Assembly: GCA_963794325.1 (NCBI GenBank)
Contig: CAWCDG010000003.1
Location: 160,001-224,000, forward strand
DNA length: 64,000 bases
Direction: 5' to 3'
Origin: an uncultured delta proteobacterium
GTDB taxonomy: Bacteria > Desulfobacterota > Binatia > Binatales > Binataceae
The translations under genes and the position numbers were made by a program. The notes under the pieces are model-generated. The model did no database searches. It had not been told where the DNA came from and worked only from the letters and a program-made list of their open reading frames with translations. Each line of letters opens with the position of its first letter. Within the stretch, counting starts at the first letter, position 1. Shown piece by piece: positions 42,049 to 47,850 of the stretch.

Positions 42049-43191
42049 GTGAAAGCTCTGGTAATCGGCGGCGGTATAATCGGCAGTTCGGTCGCGTGGC
42101 GGCTCGCGTCTGAAGGCGTACAGGTCAGCGTTTTCGAGCGTGGCCGTCTCGGCCTCGAAGCCTCGTGGGCGGCGGCTGGATTAATCGGACCGCAAGCCGA
42201 GGCGCACGAGCCCGGCGCGTTTTTCGATCTTGCGCTTGCCGGCAAGCGCTCCTTCGACGCCATCGTCGATCGCCTCACCGCCGAGAGCGGCGTCGATCCC
42301 GAGTACGACGACCACGGCGTGCTCTACGTCGCCTTCGACGATGCGGCGCGCGCCGAGCTCCAGTCGCGCGCACGATGGCAGCGTGCGGCCGGTGGCAACG
42401 TCGAGGAGCTGTCCCCGCGCGAGGCCTTTAGACTCGCGCCGGTGCTCTCGGAAAAGATCATCTTCGCGCTGCACATGCCTAGCAACCGGCGCGTCGAGAA
42501 TCGCAAGCTCACCCTTGCCTATATCAACGCCGCCACCAACGCCGGCGCCGAGTTCCGCGAGGGCGCGCGCGTCAATTCGATCGCAATCGAAGGTGGGCGC
42601 GCGACTGGCCTGCGGCTGGCAGATGGATCGCTCGAGACCGGCGACGTCATCATCAACGCGGCCGGCGCATGGGCCGGCGACATTCGCGGACTCGAGGACG
42701 ATCGCCTTCACTTCTACCCGGTCCGCGGACAAATCCTATGCTTCGACGCGCGCCCCGGGCTGGTCGGCCCTTCGCTGTTTTCCGCATCCGGCATAGTGGT
42801 TCCGCGGCGCGACGGCCGCATCCTCGCCGGCTCGATTTTCGAGGAGGCCGGCTTCAACAAATCCGTCACACTCGACGGGATGGAACGGATACTGCGCGCG
42901 GTGCGCGCGATGGTCCCGTCGATTGCCTCGATTCCTTTCCGCGAGGCATGGGCAGGACTGCGCCCGGCGAGTGACGACTTGCTCCCAGTGCTGGGCCCGT
43001 CGCCGACGGTCGCCAACGTCCTCTACGCCGCCGGCCACTTCCGCAGCGGCATCCTGCTGTCCGCATTAACCGGAGAAGTGATCGCCGATCTGGTCAAGCA
43101 GCGCACGCCTTCGATCGATCTGACACCATTCTCACCGGCGCGCTTCCGCAACGGCACCGCACGACCGGTGAAACTCGCCGACATGATATGA
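42049..43191 (+). CDS. thiO: Glycine oxidase ThiO-like
   Basis: IGGGIIG, ASWAAAGL, PVRGQ, WAGLRP, GHFRSGILL. Confidence 0.85.
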   Translation: MKALVIGGGIIGSSVAWRLASEGVQVSVFERGRLGLEASWAAAGLIGPQAEAHEPGAFFDLALAGKRSFDAIVDRLTAESGVDPEYDDHGVLYVAFDDAARAELQSRARWQRAAGGNVEELSPREAFRLAPVLSEKIIFALHMPSNRRVENRKLTLAYINAATNAGAEFREGARVNSIAIEGGRATGLRLADGSLETGDVIINAAGAWAGDIRGLEDDRLHFYPVRGQILCFDARPGLVGPSLFSASGIVVPRRDGRILAGSIFEEAGFNKSVTLDGMERILRAVRAMVPSIASIPFREAWAGLRPASDDLLPVLGPSPTVANVLYAAGHFRSGILLSALTGEVIADLVKQRTPSIDLTPFSPARFRNGTARPVKLADMI

Positions 43192-43556
43192 GCCGCATCA
43201 TCGCACTCGGATTAATCCGCGATTTATTCTTTCGCGCGAAAATCGACGCAGTCGCCGCTGCGCTCGGTGCCGAGGTCGAATACGCGTCGTCGCTCGACGC
43301 TGTCGCCCCACGATGTGCCGCGACGCATCCCGCGATCATCTTCACCGATCTCTCCGACAGCGCATTTCCCGCCCTTGAAACTCTGACGCAAATCCGCGCC
43401 GCAGCACCGCACGTTCGGGTGATCGGATTCGCGTCGCACGTCGATCTGAAATCTCTCAAGGCGGCCCGCGAGTCCGGCTACGATTTGACACTCTCCCGCA
43501 GCGAATTCACCGCCCAACTCCCGATCATGCTGAAAGCATCCGCTTCTTCAATCTGA
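43188..43556 (+). CDS. Atypical single-domain receiver (CheY-like)
   Basis: DLFF...IFTDL...IGFASHVD; ATGA overlap with thiO. Confidence 0.6.
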   Translation: MSRIIALGLIRDLFFRAKIDAVAAALGAEVEYASSLDAVAPRCAATHPAIIFTDLSDSAFPALETLTQIRAAAPHVRVIGFASHVDLKSLKAARESGYDLTLSRSEFTAQLPIMLKASASSI

Positions 43557-43572: not shown

Positions 43573-44376
43573 CTACACGCGCCGTGCGACGAACCGTGCC
43601 TGAGCTATCTTGCCCGCGCGCGCCATCTCGTGGAGAAAGCGAAACCCATCGACCAGTGTCTCCAGGAGTTCCGCGCGGAACGCGAGGGTTCGCAACACGT
43701 CATAAGTGAGTTGCATCTCGATCATCTTGAGGTACAAGTCGAAATGCGAAGCGAACCGCCTAGTGTCTTCCGCGACGCGCACCTCGCAGCCGCTTGCCGT
43801 CAGCAGCTTGGCGTAGCCTGCAATATCCTCGACGTTCGCGATCGTCATCATCCCAAGGAAGCGCTGCGCCTCGGCGTCGTTCAGTCCCGCCGGCCCTTCA
43901 ACCCAGTCCGTGAACGCGATCACGCCTCCGGGGCGAACGATGCGTGCCGTCTCCGCAATCAACCTTGGCTTGTCAGCGACGTAGCACCACGCATCCTCGC
44001 TCCATACGAAATCCGCGCTGGCCGAGGGCAGGCCGCTCTGACAGGCGTCAGCGTGCACTAACCGGATCGTATCGTCCAGACCTTCTTCATGAGTCAGCCG
44101 CCGCCCGCGCTCGACCACGGCCTCGGTCGCATCGACGCCCACTATCGACGCGACGCCTCGGAAGCGAACCAGGAAACGCATTCCAGCGCCGTTGCAGCAG
44201 CAGAGATCGACCCCGCTCGATCCGGCCGCGATTCCCGCCCGTTCGGCCAGATCAATCGACGCTTTCATTCCTCCGATGTGAAGTTGCTGTCCAAACACCA
44301 GTTGCATGAAATCGCCCTGCGTACCGCTGTACACCGCGACGACATCCGCCAACCCGACACCTCTAATGGACTTCAC
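43573..44376 (-). CDS. Class I SAM methyltransferase, sarcosine/dimethylglycine N-methyltransferase-like, Cys-rich
   Basis: FGQQLHIGG, VDLCCCNGAG (motif I), WSEDAWCY, RIVRPGGVIAFTDW; GTGA overlap with arsM. Confidence 0.8.
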   Translation of the reverse strand: MKSIRGVGLADVVAVYSGTQGDFMQLVFGQQLHIGGMKASIDLAERAGIAAGSSGVDLCCCNGAGMRFLVRFRGVASIVGVDATEAVVERGRRLTHEEGLDDTIRLVHADACQSGLPSASADFVWSEDAWCYVADKPRLIAETARIVRPGGVIAFTDWVEGPAGLNDAEAQRFLGMMTIANVEDIAGYAKLLTASGCEVRVAEDTRRFASHFDLYLKMIEMQLTYDVLRTLAFRAELLETLVDGFRFLHEMARAGKIAQARFVARRV

Positions 44377-45176
44377 GGCTTGCGCGCTCGCACGAATGCG
44401 CTCATGAACTTGCCGTCCGCCATCTGGACGATTCTCTCCACGCTTTTGTTGTCCCCGAACAATGCCTTCGCGTCAGCCGCGGTGTAGATTCGCGTCGGCT
44501 CGACGTCGATCTGTTCGAATCCCGCCGCCCCGAGCTTCGCGCGATACTCGGATTCCTCCAGTGCGCCCGCGATACATCCGGCCCACAACTCGACGCTGCG
44601 GCGGACGTCCGCCGGCATCTCGCCGCGCACCACGATATCCGAAACTGCGAATCGCCCGCCCGGCTTGAGCACCCGGAAAGCCTCGCGCAGCACCCGGTCC
44701 TTGTCGGTCGATAGATTGACCACGCAGTTCGAGATAATCACATCGACGGAATTTTCCGGCAGCGGAATATACTCGATCTCGCCTTTCAGAAATTCGACAT
44801 TCTGGACGCCCGCTTTGCGCTGGTTGTCGCGTGCGAGTGCGAGCATCTCGTCGGTCATGTCCAGTCCGTAGGCCTTGCCGGTTGGTCCTACTCTCCGCGC
44901 CGAGAGGATCACGTCGATCCCGCCGCCCGATCCAAGATCGAGCACCGTCTCGCCCGGCTTCAGCTCGGCAAGTGCGGTCGGATTCCCGCATCCGAGCGAT
45001 GCTGCAAGCGCCGCGGCTGGGATCGACTCTTTCTCTCCGTCGGCGTAGAGATTCGACGTGATCGGGTTGATCGCAGGTGCCGCGGTACCGCAGCACGCGC
45101 CGCCCTGGTTTGCGACACGAGTCGCCGCTTGCGCGTACTCCTTCCTGACCGTCTCCCTTATCGATTCATTGCTCAT
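44373..45176 (-). CDS. arsM: Arsenite S-adenosylmethionine methyltransferase
   Basis: CCG, SLGCGNP, LDLGSGGGID, GLDMTDEM, IISNCVVNL, WAGCIAGAL; GGAGG RBS. Confidence 0.93.
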   Translation of the reverse strand: MSNESIRETVRKEYAQAATRVANQGGACCGTAAPAINPITSNLYADGEKESIPAAALAASLGCGNPTALAELKPGETVLDLGSGGGIDVILSARRVGPTGKAYGLDMTDEMLALARDNQRKAGVQNVEFLKGEIEYIPLPENSVDVIISNCVVNLSTDKDRVLREAFRVLKPGGRFAVSDIVVRGEMPADVRRSVELWAGCIAGALEESEYRAKLGAAGFEQIDVEPTRIYTAADAKALFGDNKSVERIVQMADGKFMSAFVRARKP

Positions 45177-45201
45177 GGTAACCTCCAATATTTCGATCCA
45201 G

Positions 45202-45771
45202 TTAGATTGATGCATTCCGCGCGATTGCATTCGAAGAAGGCGTCAGCGCGAGACGTCGATGCCATCGATTCAGAGCGTTGAGTATCAGCGGGACTCCGAT
45301 CGCGCTGGGTATTAGCCAGTACGCAACGTGCGGAAGATCCCTCCACAGCGGCAGGTTCTTACCGTTATCCACGTAAAACGCGGTGAACATCAGAATGTAC
45401 GACACGCCCATCCCGCTAACATGAAAGTCGACCCATCGATGCCACAACTGTCGCCGCGCGAGACGACCGACGTGAGCCGCCGCAAAGGAAAGTGCGCCGA
45501 GAATAAACAGGTAATAGTCCTGAGCCCATCGCATCGCGGCCAGCATCGACGCGGTCGCAAACAGCGCGCAGAGGCTCCAGTAGTACAAAGTCCCGGATCG
45601 CGGATGCCGCCCGCGGCGTTTTGTACTCAGCATGGCGACGACTCCGAGAACCACGCACTCCAGGCCGAGCAGGACGTGAATACTCAACACACCGATGAAG
45701 ACCGGAGAGTCCGACGGCAGCGGGAATCCACCGAATGTTTTCAAGGTGGCGTCCATTTCACTTCTTGCCAC
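45202..45771 (-). CDS. DUF2306-like membrane protein
   Basis: About 5 TM segments; KRRGRHPRSG.LYY, H..GM..SYI..FTAFYVDNG. Confidence 0.7.
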   Translation of the reverse strand: MARSEMDATLKTFGGFPLPSDSPVFIGVLSIHVLLGLECVVLGVVAMLSTKRRGRHPRSGTLYYWSLCALFATASMLAAMRWAQDYYLFILGALSFAAAHVGRLARRQLWHRWVDFHVSGMGVSYILMFTAFYVDNGKNLPLWRDLPHVAYWLIPSAIGVPLILNALNRWHRRLALTPSSNAIARNASI

Positions 45772-46087
45772 TGGCGGAGCGCCTGGGCGCCGCGCCGAGA
45801 GTCGTGTGAAGCTCGGCGCAGCAGTCTTCGGTCATGAACCGGATGAGTTTCGCAGTCTTGGCCCAATCGATTGCGTAATAGATAAATCGTCCCGAGCGAC
45901 GCGCCGTCAGCAGACCGCATCGCGTTAATGCATCGAGGTGATGTGATAACGTTGAACCCGGCATCCGGACGCGGCGCTTGATCTCGTCGACGCATTTCCC
46001 CTGCGGCCCGGCCCGGACCAGCAGCCGAAAGATCTCGAGGCGGTCCTTCTGCCCGAGCGCGTTAAATTGTTCGACGTAAGCTTTCAC
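45758..46087 (-). CDS. arsR: ArsR/SmtB repressor with C-terminal vicinal Cys pair
   Basis: ALGQKDRLEIFRLLV, STLSHHL, GRFIYY, MTEDCC. Confidence 0.9.
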   Translation of the reverse strand: MKAYVEQFNALGQKDRLEIFRLLVRAGPQGKCVDEIKRRVRMPGSTLSHHLDALTRCGLLTARRSGRFIYYAIDWAKTAKLIRFMTEDCCAELHTTLGAAPRRSASGKK

Positions 46088-46089
46088 TA

Positions 46090-46109
46090 CGACAATACTA
46101 GTATTGTCG
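46090..46109. promoter_or_regulatory. Candidate ArsR operator: perfect 20-bp palindrome
   Basis: CGACAATACTAGTATTGTCG, 2 bp upstream of the arsR GTG. Confidence 0.8.
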
Positions 46110-46431
46110 AAATGATTACAGCAAGAGCCTTCGGCACTGGTTCCAGTTAACGAGGAATCGCTATCTTAAGGGATAGAAAAACATATCGCTGACAAAATCG
46201 CGCGCCGCTGCCGGCAGCTGACTCTCCGAAGCATCGGGTGTCGCTTGCTTCAATCAGCCAGTCGTTCAAAATATAAGAGTTGCTCAGAGAGTGACGTCCG
46301 GTTCGCGCTTCCTGAAGGATCGAACCGGGCGGCGGAGGAGGCGTCCGCGCCGCTGGGCGCGTGGAGTCGTGGACGGCTTCGCCCCCGATTCTGCTGATGG
46401 AATCGCCCGGGAGGGCCATGGAGTCATTGGT

Positions 46432-47850
46432 GTGAAGGCTCAGACCGCTTTGGGATCAATTGCGTTGATGGTGTGTGCGCTGGTGACCATGGTGCCCTCG
46501 ACGGCGTTCGCAGGGCCAGCCAATAACAAACAAGGTCCGCCACCCAGCTTCCCGGTCAACCTCGACGGCTTCGGCGCGCCATTACCAGCCATTGCGAGAA
46601 GCACTTCAGATCTGGGAATTTTCGCCAACGCGCAGCTCAACTTCAAACACATAATCACCCTGCCGGAACTGGGACCGATCTTCGACGGCACCACCTGTGC
46701 TGCATGCCATTCGCAACCGACTACAGGCGGCGGCGGCTTATTTATCGACGAGGTGCGGGTGCGCAACAACCCGTCCGGCGAGCCGGTGCACATCTTTGCC
46801 GTCGATAACATGCTCCGCAACGGCCCGCAGACCCAAGCCGGCATACCAATCTTTCCAGCCGGGATTTCGGCGGAGCCAATCGGATGCCAAATCTCGTCTC
46901 CGGGATGCCAACTGTCGCCCTGCCAGCAGGAAGAGGCAACCAAGACTACGTTCAGTGGCGACCTGCCGACTTGCGATCCGTCCAGCGCCGACTTCGCAAG
47001 CGGCGGCAACTGTGTGAGCGGGCGGGCCGCGCTGCCGCTGTTCGGCGACGGCCTGGTCGAGGCGGTATCGGATCAGACGCTGAGCCAGTTGGCCGCCAGC
47101 GAGCCTTCGTCGGTTCGGGGCGTTATCAAGATGGTTACCGAGAATTTCCTGACCGTTCCACACGTCGGGCGTTTCGGGTGGAAAGACGATCACGGGTTGC
47201 TGCGCGGGTTTGCCGGCGATGCATCCCTGAACGAAATCGGTGTGACCAACCCCGACAACCAAACTGAGAACAGCACTTGCGCGCTTGGCGTGACGCAGTT
47301 CGGCGTCACGCTGGAGGACACCGGCGTCGAAGACACCCCCGGTCCCGACGGTCGCGCCGATATCGACCGGTTTACGGACTTCATCCGTGGGCTCCAGCCG
47401 CCGCCGACGCTTCCGCAGAATGCCTCCGCAAATAACGGCGAGAAACTGTTCAATCAAATTGGATGCGCTGGATGTCATACGCCGACGCTCACGACAGCCT
47501 CCAACCCGACGTCATTCATCCCGCCGTCAACTGGCGGCACACCGATGAGCAAGGGGTATATCCAGGCTCTGTCGCACCAAACCTTTCACCCTTATGCCGA
47601 CTTTCTGTTGCATGACATGGGTTCGCTCGGCGACGGAATAACTTCCGGAACGGCGGGGCCGACGATGATGCGCACGGCGCCGCTATGGGGTGTTCGCGCC
47701 AAGTCGGAGTTGTTGCACGACGGCCGCGCCACCAGCTTGCCGATGGCGATTTCACTGCATGACGGCCAGGGAAAAGCAGCGTCGGAAGCATTCCAGGCGC
47801 TCTCGACATCGCAGCAGCAGGACGTAATCAATTTTCTGAACACGCTCTAG
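46432..47850 (+). CDS. Secreted di-haem oxidoreductase (DHOR-family); start uncertain
   Basis: LGPIF, CAACH, GRFGWK, CAGCH, DFLLHDMG, RTAPLWG, LLHDGRA. Confidence 0.88.
   Translation: MKAQTALGSIALMVCALVTMVPSTAFAGPANNKQGPPPSFPVNLDGFGAPLPAIARSTSDLGIFANAQLNFKHIITLPELGPIFDGTTCAACHSQPTTGGGGLFIDEVRVRNNPSGEPVHIFAVDNMLRNGPQTQAGIPIFPAGISAEPIGCQISSPGCQLSPCQQEEATKTTFSGDLPTCDPSSADFASGGNCVSGRAALPLFGDGLVEAVSDQTLSQLAASEPSSVRGVIKMVTENFLTVPHVGRFGWKDDHGLLRGFAGDASLNEIGVTNPDNQTENSTCALGVTQFGVTLEDTGVEDTPGPDGRADIDRFTDFIRGLQPPPTLPQNASANNGEKLFNQIGCAGCHTPTLTTASNPTSFIPPSTGGTPMSKGYIQALSHQTFHPYADFLLHDMGSLGDGITSGTAGPTMMRTAPLWGVRAKSELLHDGRATSLPMAISLHDGQGKAASEAFQALSTSQQQDVINFLNTL

Follow-up and report, generated by a model that had tools for sequence, protein, structure and literature searches.

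The window analysed here, a stretch of 64,000 nucleotides from contig CAWCDG010000003.1 of an uncultured bacterium of the Binataceae (assembly GCA_963794325.1), contains a variant ars operon in which arsM, the gene for an As(III) methyltransferase dependent on S-adenosylmethionine (SAM), is followed by the gene of a conserved and uncharacterised enzyme, a second SAM methyltransferase hereafter abbreviated as MT2. Our favoured reading, held at somewhat less than even confidence, is that MT2 transfers a methyl group from SAM to a neutral trivalent methylarsine produced by ArsM, thereby forming an arsonium ion, with the conversion of trimethylarsine to tetramethylarsonium as the likeliest reaction. 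Equally tentatively, MT2 might be the first arsonium-forming methyltransferase and might mark a wide family of methyltransferases for sulfur, selenium and arsenic whose partners are double-cubane reductases and ArsM-like selenoproteins.

Linkage of MT2 to arsM in Binataceae

Matches to MT2 are present in 26 of 151 genomes of the family, 25 of them at an identity of at least 73% (clade A) and one with only a 66% copy. ArsM is encoded in 24 of the 25 clade-A genomes, as compared with 85 of the 151 family genomes, and in 22 of these 25 MT2 follows arsM in the same orientation at a distance of at most 2.5 kb. We also analyzed a genome-wide scan, whose set overlaps with the 151 family genomes, and a metagenome scan, taking in each case the best 80 of at least 600 matches; the former provided 78 loci (28 of clade A and 50 of the more distant type B), whereas the 80 metagenome loci were reached with a distant alignment. 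In the genome-wide scan arsM is present at 24 of the 28 clade-A loci. About 10 of these 24 linked loci, inspected by eye, have flanks unlike the lhr/thiO region of the window, and the arsM-MT2 pair therefore moves as a unit; the pair also persists where a TauD dioxygenase or a membrane gene is inserted between its members. The ratio of nonsynonymous to synonymous substitution rates (dN/dS) in nine pairs is 0.10-0.18 for MT2 versus 0.11-0.14 for arsM, by which measure MT2 is under purifying selection.

The same comparisons contain observations that weigh against our proposal. The linkage to canonical arsM has a single origin in both phylogenetic trees that we constructed, so the counts given above are not independent; 63 of the 85 genomes with arsM are without the arsM-MT2 pair; arsM is missing from the vicinity of 4 of the 28 clade-A loci; genome G404 retains arsR, the membrane gene and arsM at the same site in the absence of MT2; and MT2 is frameshifted at loci L059 and L068, where an assembly error is possible. 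The single origin, the prevalence of arsM genes devoid of MT2 and the existence of unlinked and broken copies would all fit a passenger, namely a methyltransferase of amines or other small molecules whose gene settled behind arsM on one occasion and was then inherited. We consider this improbable, given the persistence of the pair at many sites and across the insertions just mentioned, the low score of MT2 against the profile of known betaine-forming enzymes and the absence of the catalytic His (see below). The two trees were a quick version and then a careful one of 54 rows, with sarcosine/dimethylglycine N-methyltransferase (SDMT) and phosphoethanolamine methyltransferase (PEAMT) sequences standing outside both. 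Clade A alone has support of 91/62 in the careful tree, and of 100/99 when joined with two unlinked paralogues of genome G317.

MT2 is one of several genes found behind arsM. A TauD/TfdA dioxygenase directly follows arsM in all six of its close copies (5 of the 151 genomes; for example L048:4979-6001), with MT2 coming next in three of them, and is a second uncharacterised partner of arsM. In genomes lacking MT2 (loci L129, L130, L134 and L135) the slot after arsM holds a glutathione S-transferase, a rhodanese or ArsA, while in a few ars operons MT2 is itself followed by proteins without Pfam match, of 435 residues (L055:3464-4768, L057) or 233 residues (L020:752-1453). The gene after the clade-A one at L047 is a type-B paralogue. 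A search of plasmids with MT2 at E 1e-15 found no match, and one with the TauD protein retrieved 27 records, each below 60% identity. Among 301 genomes of the phylum that were scanned, 3 have a match to MT2, all within the class.

Fold, pocket and candidate substrates of MT2

The structure model of MT2 (pLDDT 95.8) has its nearest folds in PEAMT (Z 31.0, root mean square deviation 2.4 over 256 aligned residues) and SDMT (2o57; Z 30.1, deviation 2.2 over 250 aligned residues; TM 0.85), hence it has the SDMT fold. Both enzymes make quaternary ammonium ions, which bears out, as far as an onium-forming fold goes, the resemblance to SDMT noted in the initial annotation; the motifs FGQQLHIGG, DLCCCNG and WSEDAWCY reported there, as well as the six Cys (residues 59, 60, 61, 112, 131 and 197), are likewise all present. 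MT2 shares with SDMT similar HxG and WSxDA motifs but its score against the SDMT profile NF041675 is only 52.5 bits versus a cut-off of 550, DAFLH is replaced by DAWCY and no GSMT partner is encoded in the operon; a search of the genome with NF041675 found no gene over the cut-off. The similarity to ArsM is equally limited, with 34.5 bits against a PRK11873 cut-off of 263 and 25% identity to the neighbouring ArsM over 116 residues, and none of the catalytic Cys of ArsM is kept; the Cys151 of its SNCV motif aligns with Asp128 of MT2. With the PEAMT proteins of known structure (PfPMT, 3uj6 and 4krh; AtPMT, 5wp4/5wp5), the identity is 19-22%. Here the residue roles are those described in the available text of PMC6705855 and PMC6661969, and the pocket of MT2 was mapped by sequence profile alignment to PfPMT rather than by superposition of side chains, which weakens the case that we build upon it. 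In this alignment the equivalents of Tyr19 and Asp128 are kept in MT2, whereas the Tyr19-His132 dyad is broken: Tyr is retained as Tyr16, but all 80 proteins have Tyr132 in place of His. The phosphobase site is also lost, since PfPMT residues Tyr27, Tyr160, Tyr175, Arg179, Tyr181 and Lys247 correspond to Met24, Trp158, Phe173, Met177, Ile179 and Leu248, all of which are hydrophobic (the position of PfPMT Tyr181 being Ile or Phe across the family). On the basis of profile cut-offs, residue mapping and Cys alignment, the identification of MT2 as SDMT, PEAMT or ArsM was rejected.

The proteins related to MT2 share the signature Y16, H33, D128, C131, Y132, W158, M177 and F179. Those of type B, which show 58-67% identity to MT2 and occur in Binatia, Myxococcota, Planctomycetota, Verrucomicrobiota, Lentisphaerota and other groups, keep Trp24 in 48 of 51 and Lys178 in 49 of 51 sequences, and both residues are kept in 74 of the 79 metagenome matches with the full signature; in contrast, neither is found in any of the 29 clade-A proteins. 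The positions of Trp24, Met28 and Lys178 are changed exactly in the arsM-linked branch and the pocket of MT2, to judge from these residues, changed upon recruitment to arsM. A further caution is that MT2 of the window has private changes at three near-invariant sites (M78I, F106L and F179I). The CCC of the DLCCCNG motif lies in the SAM-binding loop, is equally conserved in the 51 type-B and 29 clade-A proteins and becomes DLCSALG in 20 of 28 distant matches. The idea that it forms an arsenic-binding thiol site, proposed in the initial annotation, was consequently abandoned: the triad is as well conserved in 51 proteins from outside ars operons and is lost in distant members, and the position of the catalytic Cys151 of ArsM is taken by Asp128. 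Selenocysteine in MT2 was similarly rejected, as there is no in-frame stop in 80 aligned matches.

A pocket having neither the general-base His nor a mapped basic residue suits a small neutral nucleophile such as an arsine, a selenide or a thioether, which needs no deprotonation. Given that MT2 is placed behind ArsM, the end product of which is trimethylarsine, the simplest reaction would be formation of tetramethylarsonium. In the sequence of events that we envisage, ArsR would sense a trivalent arsenical, possibly methylarsenite (MAs(III)), and let go of its operator; ArsM would methylate arsenic via its Cys thiols to dimethylarsenite (DMAs(III)) or trimethylarsine (TMAs(III)); and MT2 would then catalyse a direct SN2 attack of the arsenic lone pair on the methyl group of SAM within its hydrophobic pocket, with no need for a general base, to produce an inert cation, the quaternary arsonium. 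A working model is offered by the mammalian enzymes TPMT and INMT, which act in succession to make trimethylselenonium, the first producing a neutral methylated metalloid and the second, which binds its neutral substrate in a hydrophobic site, the onium (PMC10844679, as far as its available text goes). The likeness is one of function and concerns selenium; INMT is neither among the 50 fold matches listed nor among the sequence matches of MT2 in the PDB. It also has to be considered that TMAs(III) is described as volatile and nontoxic in the available part of PMC11868830, so that the benefit of a fourth methyl group is hard to see.

Alternatively, MT2 may aid the ordinary methylation of arsenic and form no onium, either by speeding the step from DMAs(III) to TMAs(III) or by S-methylating thio-arsenicals, perhaps via Cys131. 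The linkage to arsM would be explained just as well, Cys131, next to the catalytic position, is conserved throughout clade A (29 of 29 proteins) and the metagenome matches (79 of 79) and in all but one of the 51 type-B proteins, and the other genes found behind arsM (TauD in six of six close copies, rhodanese, glutathione S-transferase) suggest add-ons for product handling. We regard this role as unlikely, considering that MT2 has none of the catalytic Cys of ArsM, that the conservation of Cys131 is family-wide and thus not specific to arsenic, and that the fold class of MT2 ends in quaternary products.

Another possibility, raised in the initial annotation, is the synthesis of arsenobetaine from reduced dimethylarsinoylacetate or, by extension, of a trimethylarsonio-sugar from an arsenosugar derived from ArsS. 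SDMT is indeed the second-nearest fold, arsenobetaine biosynthesis is called unresolved in PMC9609160 (available text), and the genome contains arsS as a stand-alone gene over the profile cut-off (C4:248299-249201, with no arsM beside it). However, the ars branch has lost Lys178, the one invariant basic residue of the pocket, with no other basic residue seen at the pocket positions checked, the operon has no recurring gene for carboxymethyl transfer, and arsS, which is commoner than arsM in the family (107 versus 85 of 151 genomes), is not enriched in clade-A genomes (20 of 25) and never adjacent, these counts of arsS having been added up manually from the rows listed and from totals per genus. 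Arsenobetaine or an arsonio-sugar as the product is therefore very improbable, and the coupling of MT2 to arsenosugar synthesis was rejected on the same absence of enrichment.

The main rival to arsonium formation is that MT2, as may be true of its relatives, methylates compounds of selenium, sulfur or tellurium (methaneselenol, dimethylselenide or dimethylsulfide) and entered the ars operon as a gene serving metalloid stress in general. It draws its strength from the surroundings of the wider family. By tblastn with the Binataceae ars genes on flanks of up to 5-6 kb, no close homologue of these genes was found near any of the 50 type-B or 80 metagenome loci, a result to be read with the fact that 37 of these 130 loci are shorter than 5 kb. 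The observation that, according to the initial annotation, would speak against its proposal, namely homologues lying for the most part apart from ars genes, thus applies to the family taken together and not to clade A. The commonest context outside clade A is instead a double-cubane reductase (NF040772 over its cut-off) with two HGD-D paralogues and an activase, seen at 22 of the 50 loci of type B and at 43 of the 80 from metagenomes; for selA, selB or selD the corresponding numbers are 12 of 50 and 9 of 80. This context, which counts against an arsenic substrate, points to selenium or to low-potential reduction, the more so as SelD reportedly accompanies double-cubane proteins in nearly every case (bioRxiv 2022.07.06.499078, available text). 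Type-B genes head or join the double-cubane operon at L073, L086, L106, L110 and other loci, often with selD, selA or selB and DUF3034.

Five type-B genes, belonging to at least three branches of the careful tree, adjoin ArsM-like methyltransferases that fall below the ArsM cut-off: three are head-to-head in Binatia, one is downstream in a nitrogenase-like cluster and one, a Cys form, is directly upstream. This association speaks in favour of our reading. In four of these five neighbours TGA is in frame at the last catalytic Cys and likely encodes selenocysteine. The ArsM-like genes lying beside type-B genes in other Binatia are at L251, L258, L153 and L254, three of them with W-x-x-TGA-I-A-G, and L254 additionally carries ArsR, MerR and HMA genes. 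A distant family member lies downstream of three nitrogenase-like subunits at L187:2-6920 and at L189; at L187 it is followed by an EamA protein and then by an ArsM-like gene with in-frame TGA. The family consequently keeps metalloid or chalcogen company, and only its Binataceae branch sits behind true arsM.

The in-frame TGA codons of the ArsM-like neighbours and the hydrophobic, His-less pocket common to the whole family also speak for a selenium or sulfur substrate. Against it, sel or double-cubane genes occur at 0 of 28 clade-A loci and none were found in the source genome, which is 85% complete; the regulator is an ArsR with ars-type Cys; and the changes at Trp24, Met28 and Lys178 coincide exactly with the arsM-linked branch. 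We thus judge such a substrate rather unlikely for MT2, and retain arsonium formation as the preferred prediction from gene order, linkage, fold and residue changes. The recruitment of MT2 was probably a single event within Binataceae, drawing on a family otherwise tied to double-cubane reductases and selenium genes.

Organisation and regulation of the operon

The features of the operon, which has the order operator, arsR, membrane gene, arsM and MT2 with all genes on the minus strand, are listed in table 1. Gene order, the perfect palindromic operator before arsR and the GTGA overlap (44376-44373) coupling MT2 to arsM all agree with what had been described for this locus. The nearest relatives carry the names Candidatus Binatus or Binataceae.

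Table 1. Coordinates of the arsR-arsM-MT2 operon and its predicted control elements in the window.
Feature	Position	Strand	Basis
Predicted arsR promoter	46095..46124	-	Read off the conserved upstream alignment
Operator, perfect 20-bp palindrome over the -10 element	46090..46109	undefined	Predicted ArsR site
arsR, ArsR/SmtB repressor, 109 aa	45758..46087	-	NF033788, 70.2 bits (cut-off 55)
Optional DUF2306-like membrane protein, 184 aa, 5 helices	45202..45756	-	Homologues and structure model
arsM, As(III) SAM methyltransferase, 267 aa	44373..45176	-	PRK11873, 364.7 bits (cut-off 263)
MT2, SAM methyltransferase of PEAMT/SDMT fold, 267 aa	43573..44376	-	Fold model, profiles and alignments

The palindrome sits 2 nt ahead of the GTG start of arsR and is a perfected version of an imperfect repeat kept upstream of 30 other aligned arsR starts; its consensus pattern has this site as the sole match in the window, with a mean of 0.01 expected by chance. 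The putative promoter consists of a -35 element TTGCTG (46124-46119), an 18-nt spacer and a -10 element TAGTAT (46100-46095), the latter being conserved in the upstream alignment as TAGAA followed by A, T, G or C in relatives. As the -10 element ends 7 nt before the GTG, the arsR transcript is likely leaderless. No promoter was called by a consensus-based scanner, whose single terminator-like site is what chance would give. ArsR contains Cys32, Cys57 and the C-terminal pair Cys89-Cys90 without a third C-terminal Cys, an arrangement equivalent to that described for SpArsR, an MAs(III)-selective repressor, while the CC pair is also present in AfArsR (PMC11868830, available text). The conserved Cys32 could serve as third metalloid ligand. 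The locus is identified as an ars operon by the arsenic-type Cys site of ArsR and by the conserved operator at the predicted arsR promoter.

A separate operon, arsR-arsI-arsC-acr3, is located at C4:1849795-1852237 of the same genome and its ArsR has the CC pair plus two further Cys. The initial annotation noted the absence of arsC and acr3, which is correct for the window (tblastn matches in the genome being confined to contig C4), but the genome does carry both. A division of labour between an operon for As(III) efflux and one for methylated arsenic is plausible from the Cys patterns of the two regulators. ArsM itself is canonical, as had been claimed, with C28/C29, C63, C151 and C201 in the motifs CC, CGNP, SNCV and WxGC that are kept in relatives, and its gene is preceded by the Shine-Dalgarno sequence GGAGG.

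Of the 28 loci of clade A, 9 include the membrane gene, which can also accompany arsM in the absence of MT2 and is thus an optional partner of the arsM unit. Its product has the five helices previously proposed, as seen in the structure model, but the overlap with arsR would require a start at GTG 45771; from the homologue-supported ATG 45756, 1 nt past the stop of arsR, the gene abuts arsR. The protein has no Pfam match of its own, yet its close homologues carry PF10067 (DUF2306), Atlas clusters bear the DUF2306 name at 0.97, and H27, H51 and H112 are invariant across 72 homologues. Its best fold match, cytochrome b561, is not significant (E 0.2), for which reason the roles of exporter and cytochrome were rejected; the suggestion of an exporter is also at odds with the optional nature of the gene and with the Acr3 already encoded in the genome. 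A haem redox role may be taken as a lead only.

The cassette lies between a thiO-like/response-regulator-like pair (43188-43556) on one side and a block of di-haem oxidoreductase, DUF1275 and lhr genes (46291-47850) on the other, and its insertion site holds different cargo in relatives. Dozens of 22-bp perfect palindromes resembling repetitive extragenic palindromes (CCCCTTCCC-4 nt-GGGAAGGGG) occur in the ten contigs examined, in which there are also several sites that we take to be parS-like.

Relation to known arsenic systems

In arsM-arsS clusters (arsenosugars) and, according to the available account of arsinothricin synthesis, also in arsQML, ArsM works alongside another SAM enzyme through which the chemistry of arsenic is extended. 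There the partner of ArsM is a radical SAM protein; MT2, in contrast, belongs to the class I methyltransferases, and the arsS of this genome is at a different location. The closest parallel in gene order is with arsR-arsM operons such as ArarsRMC of Arsenicibacter rosenii (PMC11868830, available text), in which an ArsR with its own operator also precedes a canonical ArsM; the operon presented here differs in having a methyltransferase of an unrelated subfamily coupled to arsM and in leaving efflux and reduction genes to a separate operon.

The textbook scheme of microbial arsenic methylation, as given in the available text of PMC11868830, ends at trimethylarsine, and tetramethylarsonium has been reported in rice grain from soils (PMC5339872, likewise). 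A literature search, drawn largely from papers outside subscription, retrieved no enzyme forming tetramethylarsonium or arsenobetaine from methylarsines and no account of an arsM-MT2 cassette. If our reading is true, MT2 would provide a genetic source for quaternary arsenicals, such as tetramethylarsonium and other trimethylarsonio compounds, in soil bacteria, and as a single small soluble candidate it makes the arsonium question directly testable. Even with a selenium or sulfur substrate, its activity would be the first function assigned to a family that extends across Binatia, Myxococcota, Planctomycetota, Verrucomicrobiota and other groups.

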